Both the position numbers and the translations under genes were made by a program. Below are positions 5,767-64,000 of a stretch of DNA of 64,000 bases, piece after piece. Within the stretch, counting starts at the first letter, position 1. The number at the start of each line of letters is the position of its first letter. Source of the DNA: an uncultured delta proteobacterium (GTDB lineage: Bacteria > Myxococcota_A > Polyangia > Polyangiales > B10-G4); NCBI GenBank assembly GCA_963727445.1, contig CAVSGI010000013.1:273316-337315 (forward strand). Reading direction: 5' to 3'. The notes under the pieces were generated by a model. That model was not told the DNA's origin. It did no database searches and was given only the letters and a program-made list of their open reading frames with translations.

Positions 5767-7299
<1,533 letters not shown>

Positions 7300-7354
7300 G
7301 TGGCGCCAGATGCTACATGGGGGGAGAGGGCTTCGCGACTCTTTCCTAAGACTC

Positions 7355-8245
7355 ATGGCACTCGACGAATGGCTCGCGATCGACGGCGTTCCGAGGGACG
7401 AAGCGCCCGAAGAGCACCGCGATGCGGAGGGGATCGCCGTCCGCAGCGACGCCCTCGTGTCCGTGGAGAGAGGGCGGATCACGGTGGTCCCCTGGACCTC
7501 GGTGCTGTCCGTGGTCCGGGTCGAAGATCGGGTCTACGCGCTCTGCCCGAGGCGTCCGCCCGCGCCCCCGTGGATCGAGATGAAAGCCTCCCACGCCGAG
7601 GCCATCGGCGAGACGCTCGACTCCTTGCGCGACAACCTCGCCGCGCGCGCCAGCCGCCGCGGATACCGGGAGGCGGGCCCGACCCGATCGCTGCTCTCGC
7701 CAAAGGAGCTCTTCGATCGCCTGATCGCGAAGGACCCGGTTCCCGGGACGGTGGAGGTGCCCGTCGGCTACGGGCCGGGCGGACGCACCAGGCTGACAAC
7801 GCGCATCGGACAGACCATCGCCGGGATGGGGATGGGCGCGCTGGGTGGCGTGTATGCGGGCGCCATCCTTCAGGCGATCTTCGTCGCACAGCCGGCGGTT
7901 GCGTTCATCGTCGGCATGGCCTCCACCACCACGGCGGGCGGCGCCGGTATGCTCTACCTGGCGCGTGACAAGAAGGGGCAGGGTCGGGTCCTGGCCCTCG
8001 CGCCCGACGGCATGGTCATCGGGCTGCCCCAAGGCGTCCGGGCGTATGGGTGGCAGGCGATCGGAGGGTTCCGCGGCGAAGAGCGCGTGCTGCCCGATGG
8101 GTCGGGCCGCTCCTTTCCGCACCTCGTGGTGCAGGGCAGCGACGAGCGCGAGATCGGTGCGATCCACGAGGCCTGGTTCGACCGCCCCCTCGACCTCATC
8201 GTCGCCGTCGCCGAGGCCTATCGCGCGCGATTCTCGAAAGCGTGA
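7355..8245 (+). CDS. Hypothetical protein with a central Gly-rich hydrophobic segment.
   Basis: ORF 7310..8245 with good codon bias. ATG at 7355 chosen (MALDEW...). The start is uncertain. Confidence 0.4.
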   Translation: MALDEWLAIDGVPRDEAPEEHRDAEGIAVRSDALVSVERGRITVVPWTSVLSVVRVEDRVYALCPRRPPAPPWIEMKASHAEAIGETLDSLRDNLAARASRRGYREAGPTRSLLSPKELFDRLIAKDPVPGTVEVPVGYGPGGRTRLTTRIGQTIAGMGMGALGGVYAGAILQAIFVAQPAVAFIVGMASTTTAGGAGMLYLARDKKGQGRVLALAPDGMVIGLPQGVRAYGWQAIGGFRGEERVLPDGSGRSFPHLVVQGSDEREIGAIHEAWFDRPLDLIVAVAEAYRARFSKA

Positions 8246-8273
8246 CGCCCGCCGCAGTCGCCGCGGTCAACCG

Positions 8274-8368
8274 ACGGGGACGGTCTACACTTTTCAACTT
8301 TCGGCGGTGTCAACTGACGGGGATGTCAACTGACGGGGACGGTCTACACTTTTCAACTTTCGGCGGTG
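8274..8368. repeat. REP-like element locus A. Two direct copies of ACGGGGACGGTCTACACTTTTCAACTTTCGGCGGTG (8274-8309 and 8333-8368) separated by a partly duplicated 23-nt linker.
   Basis: Exact 36-nt duplication read in the sequence. The same core recurs at ~27.7 kb and ~55.8 kb. Confidence 0.85.
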
Positions 8369-8562
8369 ACGCCGGTCTCAGCCGCCGAGAGATCGCCGCG
8401 TGCCTGGGCACGTGATGCTCGCCGTAGTCGCCGTGAGGGACGAGGTGTCCAGGTGCGTCAGCCGCCGAGCGCCCCCGCAGGCGCCGACTGAGGCGCACTG
8501 AAGATGCGTCGCAAGGAGGCGTCGAGGAGGAAAGCCGGCGGATGACGTGCCTGGGCGCCTCG

Positions 8563-16311: not shown

Positions 16312-17115
16312 CTAGAGCGACGTCGGCAGGATGTCGTAGCCGCATTGCGCGGGGCAGGCGTCGGGGGTGGACGCGCAATCGGGAAGCGTCCGTTCCTCGC
16401 GCGCGGGCACGGGCTCGGGCGGGTCGTCGAAGCCGCCCCCTTCCTCTTCTTCGTACTCCGAGGGCCCGACCGCGACATGGTCGGCATCGACCCACACGAC
16501 CGGCAGCCGCCAGCTCGAGCCCGAGGGCGGATCGCCCTCCGCGACCTCCGTGCTGAGCGCTACGGCCGCGAAGCGAAGTCGCGGCGCGCCATGTGCGAAG
16601 CTCACGAGCCAGAAGGTCTGGTTCTCGCTCGCGCCCTCCGAGTCCTCGGAGTTGGTTTCCGCGGCGAGAGCGACGCCGCCGGCTTCGGCGTGCGCCTGCA
16701 TGAACAAACCGCCGTCGTGAGCACCTGGCGACACGTACGCGTCCCGTGACTCGAGAACGTACCACCGGCTCCCCGCCTCGAGCGCGAGGAGCGACCACCA
16801 CGACGACTCCTCACCCGGGAGCGTCAGCTGAACGACGCGGGTGATTCCGCCGGCGTCGCCGGTGAAGAGCGCGTTCTCCTGACAGGATGAGACGTCGGCG
16901 TCCTGGCCGCCTTCCCGCAAGTCCGCGACCCACGCTGCGCACACCTCGTCGAGATCGGCGTACGCAGCACAAGGGCCGGGAGGATCGCCGGTCGATTCGG
17001 GCGTCGCGCTTCGTTCGTTCGCCGCGGCAGGCGGCGCCTCGACGACGGGACGCGAGGGACCGCCGCATCCCCAGATCGACGACAGAACGACGAAGGCGAG
17101 TCCCCGATGGTCCAT
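16312..17115 (-). CDS. Lipoprotein, hypothetical.
   Basis: ATG at 17115, MDHRGLAFVVLSSIWGC|GG. Only this 3' third of the 671-aa six-frame ORF 16312..18327 has protein-like composition; the rest is an off-frame of clpB. Confidence 0.5.
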   Translation of the reverse strand: MDHRGLAFVVLSSIWGCGGPSRPVVEAPPAAANERSATPESTGDPPGPCAAYADLDEVCAAWVADLREGGQDADVSSCQENALFTGDAGGITRVVQLTLPGEESSWWSLLALEAGSRWYVLESRDAYVSPGAHDGGLFMQAHAEAGGVALAAETNSEDSEGASENQTFWLVSFAHGAPRLRFAAVALSTEVAEGDPPSGSSWRLPVVWVDADHVAVGPSEYEEEEGGGFDDPPEPVPAREERTLPDCASTPDACPAQCGYDILPTSL

Positions 17116-25888: not shown

Positions 25889-27394
25889 ATGCCCGACAGC
25901 GTGCTCCCCAGCCTCGATCAGATCCGAGATCTGGAGATCCTGATCAAGGCGCACCACCCGTTGATCCTCATCGAGACCATCGAAGAGGATCGGGTCGGCA
26001 CGCTCATCGAGTACCTCGCCGACCGGCTGAAGCTGCCCCTCTACACCTGGACGGCGCACCGCGGCCTCTCCACCGCCGAGGGTCCGCCCCTGGCGGGAAC
26101 CGACGCCGCCGACCGCATGCTCGACTTCGTGGCCCAGAGCAACGCCGAAGCGCTCTATCACCTCCGCGGTTTCACGCCGGCCTTCACGGACCCGCCGCTG
26201 GTGGCGCGCCTCAAGGATCTCTACAAGCAGCTCTTCGCCCACCGGGGCGCGCTGATCATGACTGGGGTGGACGCGAGCCCGTCGCCGGACCTCGAAGCGC
26301 TCTTCACGGTGGTGGACCTCGAGCCGCCGACGCCCCACGCGTATTACCAGTTCGTCTCCAACGTCCTTCGCGACCTTCGAAAGCGCATGGAGATCCAGGT
26401 CGACCTCTCGGGCGAGGACGTGGCGGTGCTGCTGAGCCACCTGCGCGGGCTGACGTTCTTCGAGGTGAAGAAGATCGTGACCCAGGCGGTGATCGAGGAT
26501 GGGCGCCTCGACCGCAGCGACATCGAGAAGGTGCTCGAAGCCAAGAAGCGCGCGATCCAGCGCTCGGGCGTCCTCGACTACTACCCGGCCGACCAGAGCC
26601 TCGGCGACCTGGCCGGCCTCGACAACCTCAAGACCTGGCTCCGCAAGCGGAAGAACGCCTTCGCCAACCCCGACGAGGCCAAACGCTTCGGCCTGAGCGC
26701 GCCCAAAGGGCTGTTGCTGCTGGGGGTGCAGGGCTGCGGCAAGAGCATGTGCGCCAAGGCGGTCGCCGCGGAATGGCAACTGCCGCTGATCCGCCTCGAC
26801 CCGAGCTCGCTCTACAACAAGTTCGTGGGCGAGTCGGAGAAGAACCTGATGCGGGCGATCAAGACCGCCGAGCAGATGGCGCCCATCGTCTTGTGGATCG
26901 ACGAGATTGAGAAGGCCTTCGGCGGTCAGGAGGGCTCCGGGAGCGACTCGGGCACCACCAGCCGCATCTTCGGCACGTTCCTGACGTGGCTCAACGACAA
27001 GAAGGAGAGCGTCTTCGTCATCGCCACGGCGAACGACATCTCGCGCCTGCCGCCCGAGCTCCTTCGCAAGGGCCGCTTCGACGAAATCTTCTTCGTGGAC
27101 CTGCCCGACGCCGAGACCCGCGCCCGCATCTTCGCCGTGCATCTGAGCCGCCGCGATCGGGCGCCGGAGGGCTTCGATCTCGAGGCGCTGGCGGCCGCGA
27201 CCGAAGGCTTCAGCGGTGCGGAGATCGAGCAGGTGGTGATCAGCGCGCTCTACACCGCCTTCAGCGATGGCCGTGCGCTCGACGACGTGCTGCTCCTCGA
27301 AGAGGCGCGCGGCACCCGGCCACTGTCGGTGACCATGGGCGAAAAGATCGCCGAGCTCCGCGCCTGGGCGGAGGACCGCGCCGTCCCCGCCTGA
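25889..27394 (+). CDS. AAA family ATPase (Ycf46-like: N-terminal domain plus a C-terminal classic-clade AAA module).
   Basis: Walker A '[15 protein letters not shown]', Walker B '[12 protein letters not shown]', second region of homology '[25 protein letters not shown]'. Confidence 0.8.
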
Positions 27395-27572
27395 CCTTTC
27401 ACTCCTGCATTTTCATCATTGCAGATGCGAAGGATTTGCGGCTGTCGCGGCGCGAGTTCGGCAATGATTCTCCGACTGACACCCTTGGCACTCCGTTTGC
27501 TTTGTCTCCCTCGCGAAGCGACAGTGGGTGAAAGCAACCCCCCCCCACGCCGACGCCCACGCGCTTCAATCT

Positions 27573-27618
27573 GGCCCGCGATCGTACCCCCCACGGTCGC
27601 GGGCCTTCATTTTTGTCG
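27573..27618 (+). terminator. Rho-independent terminator-like hairpin (GGCCCGCGATCG-loop-CGGTCGCGGGCC) followed by TTCATTTTTGTCG.
   Basis: 12-bp GC stem with one mismatch, 9-nt loop, T-run. It lies ~180 nt downstream of the AAA gene stop. Confidence 0.5.
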
Positions 27619-27697
27619 TGTCGGATCGGCGGCGCCGTGACTCGACAACGGGCGGGTGCGTGAAGGCCGGCCGGGAGGCGGGATGCGCGTTTCGCTT

Positions 27698-27858
27698 CAC
27701 GGGGACGGTCTACACTTTTCAACTTTCGCCTTGGCCGCGGGTATGCGGGTGGAACCCCGACGTGCGTGGCGAAAGTTGAAAAGTGTAGACCGTCCCCACT
27801 AGCCTGCGGGTGGAACCCCGACGTGCGTGGCGAAAGTTGAAAAGTGTAGACCGTCCCC
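27698..27858. repeat. REP-like element locus B. One forward copy (27698-27730) and two reverse copies (27770-27797, 27831-27858). A 53-nt unit (GCGGGTGGAACCCCGACGTGCGTGG plus the reverse copy) is tandemly duplicated.
   Basis: GGGGACGGTCTACACTTTTCAACTTTCG and its exact reverse complement were read directly. They can form a ~28-bp stem. Confidence 0.85.
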
Positions 27859-27859
27859 A

Positions 27860-29086
27860 TTAGCCTTCGGATCGGTATTCGAGGTAGCCGCTGACCAGGG
27901 CGTCGTAGAGCCAGCCGGCGACGATGCGGCGGCCGTGCGGGCTGAGGTGCTTGAGGTCCGAGGCGGCGAGGCCCTCGTGCAACCACCGGCGAAAGGAGCC
28001 GGCGCCACCCATCGCGGCGTAGGTGTCGAAGAAGGCGCAGCCGGCCTCGTGCGCCGCCGCCCGCTGGGCGTCGACCGCGGCCTGCACCTCCTCGGGACGA
28101 ATGTGGCTCCGGCCGCTCATCTCGTGCTCGATGATCCCGGTGAGGAGGCAGCCCGACTCGGGCAGAGCGCTCCGCACCCGCGCCAGCACCCGCCGGGTCT
28201 CCTCCTGAAACTCCGCGGAGGAACCCGCGCGCCCCACGTGGCGGCGCAGGTCGTTTCCGCCGTAGGTGAGGATCACCAGGTCCGAGGCCCGGGCGCGGAG
28301 CTGGCCGGCGAAATGTGGCTCGTCGTACTCGAGGAGCCGCGTGGTGAAGGCGCCGATCATCGACAGCGTGTCCCAGACCACCCCTGGCCCGTCGGTCTCG
28401 AGCACCACGCCATACGCGCGCGTGCGCCCGCCGCCCGCATGGCGGAGCCGCACCTTGTGGTGACCGGCGGGCATGCGCATGCGATGGAAGCGGTCTTCGA
28501 GCGCCTCCGCCGCCGTGTCGAAGATCAGCTCGGGCTCGCCGTCGACCTTCAGTCCCAGCCGCCCGCCGCGCCGCTGCGTCGCGTACCACAGCTCGAGTCG
28601 ACTCGCGGTCGTGCCGTATCCGCCCTCGCGGCGGGTCTCGATGATCGTACGCGCCCCCCGCGAGCCGAGGGTGGCGACGCCCCCGAGACCGTAGTGGCCG
28701 TCGTCGAGGCAGCGGAAGATCAGGTAGCAGAACTCCCATGGCGGACGGTTCGCCAGGTGAACGGTGTTGTTGCGGTACGAGGTGGAGTGCGGTTGTGCGA
28801 GGACGAAACCGGTGCCGCCGTCCCCGAAGCGATCCTGAAAACGGCGGCGGAGGTAGTGAGGGAGCTGATCCATCCCGATAGAGGAGTCGCCCATATGGGT
28901 CACGCGGGTGATGGCACCCCTCGCGCCGTCGTCGGTGCGCGCGAGCGCGCGGTAGAACCCGTCGAGGGAGTGGGCGGGGTCGGTGATGGGATGCTCCGCG
29001 GCCCGCGGATCACCGTCGCGCGGCTGCCAGCTCGGGGTCGCTGGCCGCACCGGCGAGGGGGCCGGTGCGTCGACCGCTGGCGGCAC
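27860..29086 (-). CDS. SGNH/GDSL-family hydrolase, probably a lipoprotein. The N-terminus is unresolved.
   Basis: 'VTHMGDSSIGMD' (block I Ser) and 'ILTYGGNDL' (block III). An in-frame upstream lipoprotein signal RLFAALACSLALASC lacks a canonical start codon (see finding). Confidence 0.65.
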   Translation of the reverse strand: MPPAVDAPAPSPVRPATPSWQPRDGDPRAAEHPITDPAHSLDGFYRALARTDDGARGAITRVTHMGDSSIGMDQLPHYLRRRFQDRFGDGGTGFVLAQPHSTSYRNNTVHLANRPPWEFCYLIFRCLDDGHYGLGGVATLGSRGARTIIETRREGGYGTTASRLELWYATQRRGGRLGLKVDGEPELIFDTAAEALEDRFHRMRMPAGHHKVRLRHAGGGRTRAYGVVLETDGPGVVWDTLSMIGAFTTRLLEYDEPHFAGQLRARASDLVILTYGGNDLRRHVGRAGSSAEFQEETRRVLARVRSALPESGCLLTGIIEHEMSGRSHIRPEEVQAAVDAQRAAAHEAGCAFFDTYAAMGGAGSFRRWLHEGLAASDLKHLSPHGRRIVAGWLYDALVSGYLEYRSEG

Positions 29087-55786: not shown

Positions 55787-55975
55787 ACGGGGACGGTCTA
55801 CACTTTTGAACTTTCGCGCCGCCCAGCCAACGGGGACGGTCTACACTCTTGCACTTTCGGGCCGCCCGGCTTCGGAAAGTGCAAAAGTGTAGACCGTCCC
55901 CATCAGAGGCGGTCCCCATCAGAGGCGTCCCCGTCAGAGGCGGGGGACGGAAAGTGCAAAAGTGTAGACCGTCCC
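55787..55975. repeat. REP-like element locus C. Two forward copies (55787-55816, 55830-55860) and two reverse copies (55873-55901, ~55948-55975), plus three tandem 15-mers CCCC(A/G)TCAGAGGCG(G/T) at 55898-55943.
   Basis: Variants GGGGACGGTCTACAC-TTTTGAACTTTCG and -TCTTGCACTTTCG and their reverse complements. The inner pair forms a ~28-bp hairpin. Confidence 0.85.
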
Positions 55976-55977
55976 CG

Positions 55978-57135
55978 TTAGAAGAGGCGGGTGACGATGG
56001 TGTCTAGGTGGAGCCAGCGGTCTGGGGGGACACAGAGGTGGGTGGCGTCGCGCCGGAGGTCGCCGGATTCGAGGGCGCGGGCGATGGGGCGGGCGCGAAC
56101 GGTGCGGGGATCGAGGCCGGTTCGGCGCGTGACGTCTTCGAGATCGACGCCTTCGCGGGTCCTCAAGCCGAGCATCAGCGCCTCGTTGAGCAGCGTCTCC
56201 GCATCGAGATCCTCGCTCTCCATCTCGAAGCGCCCCTCGCCCACCGCGGCCACATAGTCCTCGCCCACCGCCACGTTCCGCCACCGCCGCGCCCGACCCG
56301 CACCCTCTTCCAAACACCCGACCGCCGCCGCCCCCAACCCCAGATAGGCGCCCCCCCGCCAGTAGTGCTGGTTGTGCAGCGACTCCTCACCGGGCGCCGC
56401 GTAATTGCTCACCTCGTAATGCGCGAGCCCATACGCCGCGAAACGCGCCTCCGCCGCAACGAACATCGCGGCGTAGTCGTCTTCCTTCGCCACCTCGAGC
56501 CGCCCCTTGCGATACAGCTCCCCGAACTGCGTCCCCGGCTCGATCGTCAACGCATACGCGGACACGTGCCTGAGCCCCATGTCCAATAGACGCGTCAGGT
56601 CGTCGTCCACCGACGCCTGCTCCGGCATGCCGAACATCACGTCCGCGCTCACCCGGGGCACTTCGGCCATCGCCGCCTCGAGCGCCGCCCTCCCCTGCGC
56701 CGCATCGTGAAAGCGCCCGAGATATCTCAGCCGCGCGTCGTCGAGGCTCTGCACCCCCACGGAGAGCCTCCCCACCCCGGCCGCGACCAGCGCCGCCGCG
56801 TGCCCGCGATCCAGCGACGAGGGGTTGCACTCCACCGTCACCTCGACGTCCTCCGCATGTACGTCGAACGCAGCGCGCACACCGGCGAGCACACGCCCCA
56901 GCGCCTCCGCCTTCCACAGCGAAGGCGTGCCGCCACCGAAGAAGACGCTGATCAACCGCCGGCCCGCGAGCGACGTGCGCCGCGCCTCGAGCTCCGCGAG
57001 AACCGCGTCCGCATACGCGTCGTGCGGCACGTCCCCGCGATCGATCTTACGCGTCGCGAAGTCGCAGTACGGGCACTTCTTCAGACACCAGGGGAAGTGG
57101 ACGTAGACGGATGTGTCAGTCGCTCGAGGCGCCAT
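55978..57135 (-). CDS. hemW: Radical SAM heme chaperone HemW (HemN-like, oxygen-independent coproporphyrinogen oxidase family).
   Basis: 'VYVHFPWCLKKCPYCDF' CxxxCxxC radical-SAM motif. HemN C-terminal domain. Confidence 0.8.
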   Translation of the reverse strand: MAPRATDTSVYVHFPWCLKKCPYCDFATRKIDRGDVPHDAYADAVLAELEARRTSLAGRRLISVFFGGGTPSLWKAEALGRVLAGVRAAFDVHAEDVEVTVECNPSSLDRGHAAALVAAGVGRLSVGVQSLDDARLRYLGRFHDAAQGRAALEAAMAEVPRVSADVMFGMPEQASVDDDLTRLLDMGLRHVSAYALTIEPGTQFGELYRKGRLEVAKEDDYAAMFVAAEARFAAYGLAHYEVSNYAAPGEESLHNQHYWRGGAYLGLGAAAVGCLEEGAGRARRWRNVAVGEDYVAAVGEGRFEMESEDLDAETLLNEALMLGLRTREGVDLEDVTRRTGLDPRTVRARPIARALESGDLRRDATHLCVPPDRWLHLDTIVTRLF

Positions 57136-60968: not shown

Positions 60969-61640
60969 ATGGGAAATCGGATTTACGTGGGGAACCTGTC
61001 GTACGGCACGGCGGAAGACGGGCTCAGGGCAGTGTTCGAAGAGAGCGGCTACAAGGTCTCGGACGTTCACATAGTCACGGATAGAGAGACGGGTCGCTCC
61101 CGCGGCTTTGCTTTCGTCGAAGTCGAGGATAGCGGGGCGCTCAGCGCCGCCATCTCGTCCCTCGACGGAAAGGAAGTCGATGGGCGTCGGCTCGCACTGA
61201 GCGAAGCACGACCACGTCGCCCTCGCGAAGGCGGTGGTGGTGGTGGCGGTGGCGGCCACGGCGGTCACGGCGGCGGCGGCGGCGGCGGACGCTACAACAA
61301 CGATCGCCGGCCACCGGTGCAGGAACGGCGGCGCCCCTACGGCGGCGGCGGTGGTGGCGGTGGTGGCGGTGGCCACAGCAGCAGCGGCGGCGGCCCTCCC
61401 GGCGGCGGCGGTGGTGGCGGTGGTGGCGGTGATCGCCCGCGCCGCAGCTTCGACAACTTCAGCGCGGGCCCGCCGCCCGATCCGCTGGAGCAACCCTCTG
61501 GCCGCGCCAGCAAGCGTCGCAAGAAGTGGGACAACAAGGATCGCGACGGTGGCGCGGGTCGCAGCGATGACCGCCGCGGCAACAACCGCCGCTCGGGCAA
61601 CCGCAAGCGCCGCGGCTGGGACGACGAAGGCGACTGGTAG
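60969..61640 (+). CDS. RRM-type RNA-binding protein with a long Gly-rich and Arg-rich C-terminal tail.
   Basis: RNP1/RNP2 'IYVGNLSY' and 'RGFAFVEV'. ATG at 60969. GGN-repeat DNA at 61230-61430. Confidence 0.75.
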   Translation: MGNRIYVGNLSYGTAEDGLRAVFEESGYKVSDVHIVTDRETGRSRGFAFVEVEDSGALSAAISSLDGKEVDGRRLALSEARPRRPREGGGGGGGGGHGGHGGGGGGGRYNNDRRPPVQERRRPYGGGGGGGGGGGHSSSGGGPPGGGGGGGGGGDRPRRSFDNFSAGPPPDPLEQPSGRASKRRKKWDNKDRDGGAGRSDDRRGNNRRSGNRKRRGWDDEGDW

Positions 61641-61652
61641 GTCTCGACCGGT

Positions 61653-63992
61653 TCAGCGGGTGGGAAGCCGCTCGCTGAGCTCCGGCAAGCGGCCCTCGTC
61701 GAGCCAGGCGTAGGTGCCCCAGGTCTGAAGGACGCGCCGGGTGTAGCGGCGGGTTTCGTCGTAGGGGATGTCCTCGATCCAAGCGTCGAGGGTGGTATCG
61801 CTGCGCTGGCGGAGCCATCGGTCGGAAGCGCCCTCACCGGCGTTGTAGGCCGATGGGATGATCGCGGGGTTGTCCTCGTAGCGCCGATACAGAAAGCCGA
61901 TGAAGCGGGTGCCGATGCGGACGTTGATCTCGGGCGTCCGGAGGGCGTCGGGAGTGCTCGGCAGACCGAGCTCGTCACCGAAGCGCCGCGCCGTGGGTCG
62001 GATGAGCTGGATCAGCCCGTAGGCGTGCGCGACCGAAACGGCGCGCGGGTCGAAGGCGCTCTCCTCGCGGGCGATGGCGCGAACCAGCGCGCTGGGCACG
62101 CCCTCGGCGGCGGCGGCGTCTTCGATCAGCGGTGCGAAGGCGCGCGGATACGCGATGCGCCATCGGTGTCGTGACTCGCCCACGGGCGCGTGATCCAGGA
62201 AGTCGCGCAGGTGGCGGCGTGCGAGGAGGCTGGCTTCGGGATGCGCGCCTGCCCGATCGAGCACGGCGGCCGCGAGCCACATGGCCTCCTCGTCCGCCTC
62301 GTCGCCGAGGAGCCCGGCGGCGCCCAGCTCGCGCATCGCCACGTCCGGCTCGTCCACGCGGAGGAGCTCCACCGCGCGAACGAAGGCGGGGGCGGTGAGC
62401 TCGGGCCGGAGCGGAAAGGTCAGCGGCTCGGATGGCTCGGCCGACATCTCGGCGCGCACGGCAGCGGCGCGCTCCGCATCGAGGAGCTCGAGGCGATGGA
62501 GCGACTGCTGCGCGTAGTAGCTGAGCGGATAGCGGCGGGCAATCTCGTCGAAAGCCGCTACGGCCTCGCCGTCGCGACCGAGGTCGGCCAGGGTGCGCGC
62601 GCGCCAGTAGGCCGCACGGCCGCGCAGATCCACCGTGTGCTCCATCGGGCCATCGGCGAGGGAGGCCTCGAGGACGGTGAGCGCCTCTTCGAGCGCGGCG
62701 CGTCGCGCTTCGGGGTCATCGGCGGCCGCCGCGCGTCCGCGCGCGTCCCACGCCAGATGGAAGCGGGCCTCCCCGCGCATGTCCCCTTCGGGGAAGTCGT
62801 TCGCGGCGCGCGCCATACGGAGGTGCGCCGCCTCCTCGTCCCCGAGCGCCGCGGCCGAGAAGGCCGAACGGAAGACGGCATCGTCCGCCAGCCGATCCTC
62901 GGGGTCGGCCAGGACCAGGGCGTCGTAATGGTCGAGGGCCTCCTGATGCCGCCCCCGGCGACCGTGCGCTTGCGCTGCCAGGTAATGCGCGGGCGTGCGC
63001 ACCGACTCGTCCTCGCATCGGCGGATCACCTCTTCGAGCACCGCCGATCCGTCGTCGCGCCGGCGCATGCGCAAGAGCGCCTTGCCCTGCATCAGCTTCG
63101 CACGACAGGACTCGAGCCCCGAGGACTCGCGCGCGAGGGCGGCGAAAGCGTCCTCCGCTTCGTCGTGGCGCATCGCATTGAAGAACGCCTCGGCGCGAAC
63201 GAAGCGATCCTCGAAGGGGATGGTGGCCAGCGCGCGGCGACGCTCCGCCGGCAGCGTGGCGAGCACGGCCTCGGCCCGCTCCATCGCGATCTCTCCGATG
63301 CGCGCACCCGGCGCGCGTGTCGCCACGCGCCGATAGAGGAGCAGCGCCTCCTCGCGCTCCGCGGCATCCTCGCTGTCGGCGAGGATTTCGGCGAGAGGCA
63401 TGCCGGCGCTCGCCGCGCCGACGTGCGATGGCGTGCGGTCGACGATCGCGCGAAGCGCGCTCACGGCCTCGTTTAGATGACCCGCCTTCGCGAGCGCCAC
63501 CGCCGTGAGCGACTCCGCGCGCTCGCGATCGGGGAAGTCGTCGGGCAGGTCCGACAGGAGCGCGATCACCTCGTCTCCTCCGTCGGCGCCGATCAGCTCC
63601 GCCAGCTCGAGACGCGCCCAGGGCGCGAGCGGGTGGTCCATCTCCGACAGCGCCGCGAAGTGGCGTCGGGCGTCGTCATCCAGATCCTGGCGCAGCGCAG
63701 CCCTGGCCGCGATGAAGTGCAGCCGCCCGAGGACGGAGGGCTCCGGCGCACCGGCGATGGCTTCTTCCGCGAGGCGCTGCCGCTCGGCGGGATCGGTCGC
63801 GGCGAGCACGGCGCGCACGGCCTCGTCGCCGACGACGCTCGCGGGATCGAAGCGTGGAGGCCCGGCAGGCGCACGGGCCGGTGCCTGGGCTGACGCCGCG
63901 CCCGGGCGGTTGGCCGGCGCGTCGCAAGTGCAGAGCGCGACGGCAAAAAACGCCGCGATCGTCGCCCTGGTGATTCGTGCGTCGCCCCGCAT
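61653..63992 (-). CDS. slt: Soluble lytic murein transglycosylase (Slt70-like: superhelical TPR-like N-terminal domain plus a C-terminal SLT domain).
   Basis: SLT catalytic motif 'IAREESAFDPRAVSVAHAYGLIQLI...AYNAG'. Signal peptide at the N-terminus. The start lies 8 nt inside the window end. Confidence 0.75.
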   Translation of the reverse strand: MRGDARITRATIAAFFAVALCTCDAPANRPGAASAQAPARAPAGPPRFDPASVVGDEAVRAVLAATDPAERQRLAEEAIAGAPEPSVLGRLHFIAARAALRQDLDDDARRHFAALSEMDHPLAPWARLELAELIGADGGDEVIALLSDLPDDFPDRERAESLTAVALAKAGHLNEAVSALRAIVDRTPSHVGAASAGMPLAEILADSEDAAEREEALLLYRRVATRAPGARIGEIAMERAEAVLATLPAERRRALATIPFEDRFVRAEAFFNAMRHDEAEDAFAALARESSGLESCRAKLMQGKALLRMRRRDDGSAVLEEVIRRCEDESVRTPAHYLAAQAHGRRGRHQEALDHYDALVLADPEDRLADDAVFRSAFSAAALGDEEAAHLRMARAANDFPEGDMRGEARFHLAWDARGRAAAADDPEARRAALEEALTVLEASLADGPMEHTVDLRGRAAYWRARTLADLGRDGEAVAAFDEIARRYPLSYYAQQSLHRLELLDAERAAAVRAEMSAEPSEPLTFPLRPELTAPAFVRAVELLRVDEPDVAMRELGAAGLLGDEADEEAMWLAAAVLDRAGAHPEASLLARRHLRDFLDHAPVGESRHRWRIAYPRAFAPLIEDAAAAEGVPSALVRAIAREESAFDPRAVSVAHAYGLIQLIRPTARRFGDELGLPSTPDALRTPEINVRIGTRFIGFLYRRYEDNPAIIPSAYNAGEGASDRWLRQRSDTTLDAWIEDIPYDETRRYTRRVLQTWGTYAWLDEGRLPELSERLPTR

Positions 63993-64000
63993 TCCTCGCC

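Follow-up and report, generated by a model that had tools for sequence, protein, structure and literature searches.

Locus B lies in a 64-kb window (the whole stretch of DNA that was analysed) of ordinary chromosome with 69.4% GC, whose genes include the 3' end of gyrB and those for a Mur ligase, ClpB, Omp85/TamB, CcmA/CcmB, HemW, Orn, DnaJ and a Ser/Thr kinase. The locus is situated between two convergent genes, which encode an AAA+ ATPase and a GDSL/SGNH hydrolase, and it is one of three clusters of the same repeat in the window (Table 1). Cluster A is likewise located between convergent genes, and cluster C between the co-directional hemW and ccmA genes, in what is probably a hemW–ccmAB operon; all units lie between genes. 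The first-pass annotation had placed the repeat exactly between the ATPase and hydrolase genes, and the convergent flanks are as it described (ends at 27394 on the plus strand and 27860 on the minus strand), but the repeat occupies only part of that spacer. The ORFs of the window showed no domain of a transposase, an integrase or a Cas protein.

Table 1. Genes, repeat units and associated features of clusters A, B and C in the window.
Feature	Positions	Strand	Remarks
Unit A1	8271–8305	+	30 nt past the TGA stop (8243–8245) of the upstream plus-strand gene
Partial outer end TCAACTGACGGGGAT	8310–8324	+	belongs to a 16-nt tandem repeat
Unit A2	8330–8364	+	direct copy of A1, 59-nt period including flanks
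AAA+ ATPase gene	25889–27394	+	
GC-rich stretch, 85 nt	27616–27700		from the conserved terminator to B1
Unit B1	27696–27730	+	outer pentamer TTCAC and 30-nt core GGGGACGGTCTACACTTTTCAACTTTCGCC
GC-rich loop/spacer, 37 nt	27731–27767		between B1 and B2
Tandem duplication, 61 nt × 2	27744–27865		one mismatch
Unit B2	27768–27802	−	perfect reverse complement of the B1 core; outer pentamer CTAGT
Unit B3	27829–27863	−	perfect reverse copy; outer pentamer CTAAT
GDSL/SGNH hydrolase gene	27860–29086	−	
Unit C1	55784–55818	+	GGGG end 14 nt from the ccmA GTG start (55774, placed by homology)
Unit C2	55827–55861	+	43-nt-period duplicate of C1; inner hairpin with C3
Unit C3	55872–55906	−	reverse copy
Three mini-repeats, ~15–16 nt, GTCCCCRTCAGAGGCG	55895–55943	−	
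Unit C4	55947–55981	−	reverse copy; its CTAAC gives the hemW TAA stop (55978–55980)

The core of B1 (GGGGACGGTCTACACTTTTCAACTTTCGCC, 27701–27730) is complementary at 30 of 30 positions to 27768–27797, with 37 nt between the arms, and at 100% of positions to 27829–27858 in B3, with 98 nt between the arms. The first-pass annotation had described the nearer reverse copy as an exact 28-nt match across a 39-nt loop; its exactness held, but the real length is 30 nt and the loop 37 nt, and the second reverse copy, which it reported within a repeat of the unit at 27806–27858, is real and lies at 27829–27858. The tandem duplication given there as 53 nt is also present, but it consists of two copies of 61 nt, 27744–27804 and 27805–27865, which differ by one C/T substitution (TRF: period 61, 2.1 copies, 96% matches), and this single mismatch per 61 nt agrees with the recent local duplication that had been suggested. 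Each 61-nt copy contains part of the loop, the reverse unit, and the stop and last codon of the hydrolase gene, the stop being TAA in one copy and TAG in the other. Folding of 27685–27875 as RNA predicted strong structure on both strands, with z = −6.9 for the plus strand and z = −8.3 for the minus strand.

The repeated unit is about 33 nt long, is non-palindromic and reads CTAAY followed by GGGGACGGTCTACACTTTTSMACTTTCS. An alignment of 11 copies with their flanks gave an outer pentamer YYRAY, an invariant GGGGACGGTCTACACT and then YTTSMACTTTC(S), with no conservation beyond the inner end of the unit. The pentamer CTAAY stands at four of the seven junctions, whose independence is our own judgement, while other outer pentamers, for example TTCAC, TCGAT and CCGAC, differ from it. 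In a host of 69% GC the unit forms an AT-rich island and, by reading, has two half-motifs in direct orientation, ACTTTTC and ACTTTC, at a distance of 8 nt. It is found solo, as direct repeats and as inverted repeats, the loop between inverted arms ranging from 11 to ~40 nt. Folded as single-stranded DNA, five single units showed no structure of their own (MFE −0.5 to −1.3 kcal/mol, z +0.1 to +0.9); the stem arises only between two inverted units, and a lone unit forms no hairpin.

The census of the 64-kb window gave nine full units and four partial ends in three clusters (3 per 64 kb as a local density), where chance alone would give 0, and the 30-mer by itself had six matches with up to three mismatches, compared with none in 100 shuffles. 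With a pair of units on an unrelated 1.3-kb metagenome contig, L001, the family is represented by four independent loci in total, from which its genome-wide abundance is extrapolated.

In cluster A the core copies at 8276 and 8335 are both forward and are without an inverted partner, hence no hairpin; besides the 59-nt period there is a 16-nt repeat of GTCAACTGACGGGGA, and a 23-nt segment with the stop codon of the upstream gene reappears twice downstream. Cluster C has forward cores at 55789 and 55832 and reverse cores at 55874–55901 and 55949–55976, and it is nested, with C2 and C3 pairing inside the pair formed by C1 and C4. Its periods are 43 nt (C1/C2) and 75 nt (C3/C4), to which the three ~15–16-nt repeats are added; the latter appear to copy the 3' coding end of hemW (CGCCTCT, minus the TTC codon) together with the start of a unit. 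Local tandem duplication that takes in non-element flank is thus common to all three clusters of the window (periods 61, 59, 43 and 75 nt). The pair on L001 is inverted, with 32-nt arms at 91% and a spacer of ~40 nt. Its loop can be aligned with that of locus B, and the arm–loop–arm element may for this reason travel as one piece.

The further copies at 8276/8335, at 55789–55976 and on L001 uphold the description of locus B in the first-pass annotation as a REP-like dispersed intergenic repeat. It should be noted that cluster C recurs base for base in a second, independently made assembly of this organism (L093, an 8.3-kb Logan contig found by a HemW look-up and lying inside the span of the window, 99.89% identical over 8.3 kb), and a repeat architecture of this type is therefore not an assembly artefact.

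The exact pattern GGGGACGGTCTACACTNTTNNACTTTC had no match among the GTDB species representatives (185,579 genomes) and none in IMG/VR, and it matched a single contig, L001, in the JGI metagenomes. The B1–loop–B2 element gave no blastn match to plasmids, and Rfam at gathering thresholds returned nothing for the repeat; permissive Rfam matches to miRNA precursor models, at ~38 bits against a 74-bit cut-off, reflect generic hairpins and were dismissed as spurious. A literature search for the core sequence found none, and a full-text search for myxobacteria with repetitive extragenic palindromic sequences gave nothing relevant. Judged by these searches, the sequence family appears to be new, the element type being well known.

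The relatives used for comparison have orthologues graded at 74–91% protein identity on contigs that retain synteny; in the nearest species-representative genomes, which are Polyangiales/Myxococcales MAGs, ATPase identity is only 55–59%. All three clusters are missing at the orthologous sites of these relatives, with gene order kept. The ATPase–hydrolase spacer at locus B is 465 nt in the window, compared with 218 nt in L087 (85%) and 213 nt in the P0002 contig (91%, known from gene coordinates only); in L082 (87%) it is longer by virtue of an extra small gene and is without the repeat. At cluster C the hemW–ccmA spacer is ~203 nt in the window and 31, 59 and 18 nt in L090, L088 and L089, respectively, and at cluster A the spacer beside the inositol monophosphatase (IMPase) gene is 317 nt in the window, 151 nt in L091 (82%) and 0 nt in L092 (91%). 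The first-pass annotation had proposed a comparison of orthologous regions for presence or absence of the insert. The same sequence is not found in the relatives: the insert of locus B is missing from L087, L082 and the P0002 contig, and the sister loci show the same polymorphism, with L088–L090 (C) and L091 and L092 (A) free of the repeat.

In the relatives of locus B the hydrolase stop codon lies 0–35 nt past a conserved terminator, which indicates that the ~250 nt at 27616–27863 are specific to the lineage of the window. The GC-rich stretch 27616–27700 was encountered neither in the relatives nor a second time in the window, and it may have arrived with the insertion. HemW ends in ...LF* in all sequences compared, with TTC TGA C in L090 and TTC TAA C followed by GGGG in the window, and this retained end places the element of cluster C exactly at the ancestral hemW stop codon. 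From their absence at orthologous sites, all three clusters are insertions or expansions younger than the splits from these relatives; given a protein divergence of 9–26%, the empty sites demonstrate that the repeat is missing, not its exact insertion boundaries.

Several of the relatives' spacers have features of their own. In L092 there is no IMPase spacer and two convergent stop codons abut. The extra small gene of L082 (4635–5330, minus strand), which is missing from the window and L087, lies between the ATPase gene and the conserved block described below and carries eight tandem 18-nt repeats (GTGTCGGGCGTCGTGCTC). L088 (6702–6762) and L089 (1370–1389) encode an identical HemW protein and differ by a 41-nt indel in the hemW–ccmA spacer, which appears, on this comparison, to be unstable in other lineages too.

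A scan of the related loci (~1.4 Mb) for like hairpins found one only in L087, at 16430–16522, between convergent genes, with 31-nt arms that are 97% complementary (43 nt at 86%). Its termini are GGGGACGG, as in the family of the window, and its AT-rich core differs (ACCTTACAAACTTCCATTCTCCG). Homology of this hairpin (GGGGACGGACCTTACAAACTTCC...) with the window family was considered and rejected, the likeness beyond the terminal 8-mer not being significant (1630 of 5000 shuffles). It may represent a sister repeat family, and the combination of common termini with another core is suggestive only of a fast lineage-specific turnover of such hairpins.

Between the ATPase gene and the repeat lies a block (27395–27616, plus strand) that is conserved in L087 (11504–11725), L082 (5380–5601) and L085 (2330–2541). 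Two elements in it are invariant, the box CTTTCACTCCTGCA and a sigma54-type TGGCAC-N5-TTGC (27486–27500), and they are followed by a region of ~105 nt with two stem-loops, a C9 apical loop (27538–27546) and a terminator at 27573–27605 with a T-run. The fold of this region has z = −5.2, and two pairs change on both sides among three sequences. The block matched no Rfam family and has the appearance of a sigma54-dependent gene for a small RNA whose loops are C-rich. The terminator (27573–27615 with its T-run), which lies ~100 nt upstream of the repeat on the ATPase side, apparently belongs to this sRNA-like block.

Near cluster A, a block of ~110 nt past the IMPase gene (window 8440–8545 in the IMPase direction, minus strand; L091 2040–2160) is conserved with the 82% relative; it carries CGCCGGCTTTCCTCCTCG...CTGACGCA..TGGACACC and has no match in Rfam. 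Elsewhere in the window, the gene at 5767–7533 (minus strand) contains at 5846–6303 four copies of a 99-nt repeat, which encode thrombospondin type-3-like Asp-rich repeats of a 588-aa protein, and long GGC/GGT triplet tracts occupy 61205–61457, either within the 5' end of an SLT/TPR gene (61653–63998, minus strand) or directly before it.

The position of locus B between gene ends had led to the suggestion that it is a bidirectional terminator or an RNA-stability element, that is, a hairpin selected by the host for termination in both directions or for 3'-end protection of the flanking mRNAs. REP/BIME and Correia elements affect mRNA stability, and a role of this kind would suit both the occurrence at gene 3' ends at four of four loci and the very stable predicted stem of locus B (−96 kcal/mol, with the z-scores of −6.9 and −8.3 given above). 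The terminator part of the suggestion is not supported, on several counts. No T-run follows the stem past 27797 or 27858 on the plus strand or past 27701 on the minus strand, either in the terminator scan or by reading; the scan finds only 27573–27615, a canonical terminator that already serves the plus strand and is conserved in relatives. A strong terminator at cluster C would cut off ccmAB, hemW and ccmA being co-directional, and cluster A, with direct copies only, is unable to form a hairpin at all. Rho-independent terminators share with locus B a stable stem at a gene 3' end, but they differ in having a U-tract, and their usual geometry is far from that of a 30-bp stem which contains AT pairs and closes a 37-nt loop.

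Nor does the wider form of this explanation agree well with the data. The element is missing from all orthologous sites, so that the same genes do without it in relatives, and cluster C is inserted in a hemW–ccmAB spacer that measures 18–59 nt there. Covariation across four hairpins gave no independent sign of selection on the stem: 24 of 35 pairs are invariant, and a score at least as high was obtained with 57 of 500 shuffles. We consider a host-selected RNA element distinctly unlikely, and the long hairpin has probably not been designed to regulate the ATPase or hydrolase genes; an effect of the predicted 30-bp stem on RNA stability is possible.

Each of the four loci has, at one of its outer edges, a forward-oriented unit that begins 1–30 nt past the stop codon of the upstream gene; the distance is 7 nt on L001 and 30 nt at cluster A, and at the hydrolase gene (27860–27862, minus strand) and at hemW (55978–55980) the TAA of CTAAY is itself the stop codon. 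Closeness to stop codons is largely expected, since the empty spacers are only 0–60 nt long and insertions into coding sequence or promoters would be purged by selection. The exact overlap with the stop codon at two genes, together with the CTAAY end, leaves room for true targeting of CTRAY. The non-palindromic arm ending in CTAAY would then be the recognition and cleavage module of a new insertion system that makes no target-site duplication and targets CTRAY-like motifs, a proposal that we rate as rather unlikely. On this proposal, with stop codons (C-TAA-C, C-TGA-C) naturally forming such a target, hairpins would come to lie exactly where genes end and would in some cases supply the stop codon. 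Hints in this direction are the hemW codon TTC TGA C of the relative, which corresponds to TTC TAA C before GGGG at the same codon here, the CTAAY at four of the seven junctions, and the junction between gene end and element, duplicated again and again.

Overlap with stop codons is also a property of integron attC sites, which are imperfect-palindrome recombination sites that overlap the preceding gene's stop codon or follow it directly and have the core consensus RYYYAAC/GTTRRRY. A CALIN-like scatter of attC-like sites would account for the GCTAAC...GTTAGC ends and for the stop-codon overlap, hemW and the hydrolase gene both being terminated by the TAA of the inverse core; the length of ~100 nt is within the attC range, and the CTAAC/GTTAG-type outer ends, in the form GGCTAAC/GTTAGCC, fit the consensus at six of seven positions in some copies by reading, while copies with TTCAC, TCGAT or CCGAC do not match it. 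Against this, pairing along the stems is perfect and uninterrupted, without bulges, extrahelical bases or an unpaired central spacer, the orientations are mixed, the window contains no integrase, and the neighbours are conserved, syntenic housekeeping genes, not a cassette array. An attC origin therefore seems extremely improbable to us.

The absence of target-site duplications bears on how the element moves. By reading of the sequence, none abuts B1–B3, C1–C4 or the L001 pair. This bears on the assumption of a classical MITE, in which the 30–35-nt arms would be the terminal inverted repeats of a deleted IS, moved by the DDE transposase of full-length copies elsewhere. Such an element would be expected to have perfect terminal inverted arms around a short non-coding core (~100 nt in total), as found here, and the nested structure of cluster C and the presence of the element here but not in relatives are consistent with it. 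With arms of 100% identity, the insertions should be young and still show a target-site duplication; its absence beside perfect-armed pairs argues against cut-and-paste DDE transposition. The solo and direct-only copies (cluster A), the variable loop length of 11 to ~40 nt and the lack of any IS in the window also speak against a MITE, which we consider unlikely; a full-length IS bounded by GGGGACGGTCTACAC..., if found, would confirm it.

Correia elements (NEMIS) of Neisseria are ~100–150 nt long, intergenic and often co-transcribed, with inverted repeats of ~26–30 nt that form long RNA stems; they duplicate a TA target, have an IHF site in their interior and vary between strains. The present repeat resembles these elements and bacterial MITEs in being an intergenic element of ~100 nt with inverted arms, and it differs from Correia elements in having no duplication, a short and variable loop, and prominent solo and direct-repeat arms.

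What is conserved is the non-palindromic unit as such, whether solo, direct or inverted, and with its AT-rich island in a 69% GC genome and the two half-motifs at 8-nt spacing it could be regarded as the binding site of a host protein, nucleoid-associated or a regulator, with the clusters as site arrays and the hairpin potential incidental. The unit can be assigned to no protein and no known motif, relatives have none of the sites at the orthologous positions, and the duplications drag in irrelevant gene ends, which looks like sloppy amplification rather than site design. We take this explanation to be very unlikely.

Some simpler identities were tried and set aside. A sigma70 promoter scan of the unit found none; a TTGAAA in reverse orientation was rejected by reading, a usable −10 being missing in most copies, and a sigma54-like GG/GC motif has its spacing one off and is missing in A/B-type copies. 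A CRISPR-like mini-array, considered in view of the 30-nt repeats and the 59–61-nt periods, was dismissed on account of the inverted copies and the lack of cas domains in the window, and the would-be spacers 27744–27769 and 27805–27830 are identical.

Overall, the comparison of sequences makes it probable that locus B is one cluster of a lineage-specific, non-autonomous, hairpin-forming family of interspersed repeats of the REPIN/BIME type, most likely a small selfish mobile DNA of the REP/REPIN kind. The evidence in favour consists of membership in a family, restriction to intergenic space, empty orthologous sites and local duplications that drag flanks along. REPIN and REP/BIME sequences of Pseudomonas fluorescens SBW25 and E. 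coli (Bertels & Rainey 2011, PMC3116915) are similar in that a short unit keeps to extragenic space, doublets of inverted units with a spacer between them fold to give a long hairpin and singlets also occur, tandem clusters include flanks, insertion takes place into or next to existing copies, families are lineage-specific and no target-site duplication is evident. In the higher-order clusters of REPINs, the element and its flanks are tandemly repeated and insertion occurs into or beside existing copies (PMC3116915).

The unit studied here is extragenic, forms inverted doublets (cluster A excepted) and shows this cluster architecture, but it has no palindromic core of its own; the other differences are the conserved outer pentamer, which is CTAAY and not GTAG-like, and the host, a myxobacterium. 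A palindromic core is the defining feature of REPs, and a RAYT-like enzyme is expected to recognise it. The lack of such a core in the single unit, the absence of any transposase from the window and the direct-only copies of cluster A count against a REPIN, and we describe the repeat as working like a REPIN, not as a proven RAYT-dependent one.

On this basis, the following course of events may be proposed for the host, an uncultured Polyangiales-like myxobacterium. The building block is the ~33-nt unit CTAAY-GGGGACGGTCTACACTTTTSMACTTTCS, and the spreading unit most likely the inverted doublet, composed of an arm, a loop of 11–40 nt and a second arm, ~80–110 nt altogether. We infer that an enzyme whose gene lies elsewhere in the genome copies the doublet in trans, in the form of a DNA hairpin; a RAYT/HUH-type transposase would be the leading candidate, favoured because no target-site duplication is seen. 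At locus B the element would have landed in the short spacer just past the hydrolase stop codon after the split from relatives with 85–91% ATPase identity, and one arm with its flank (61 nt) would then have been tandemly duplicated by slippage or unequal recombination. As a by-product, the transcribed 30-bp stem in the 3' UTR of the hydrolase gene might hold up exonucleases or offer a cleavage site for RNase III.

Taken together, these results add an undescribed family of interspersed repeats in a poorly sampled, uncultured Polyangiales-like lineage, for which the repeat could serve as a strain-typing marker. Intergenic hairpins of this kind are to be expected as a likely source of assembly breaks in MAGs and of spurious small-ORF calls. 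If the placement at stop codons reflects true targeting, the family would be a natural example of a mobile element that inserts harmlessly at gene ends.
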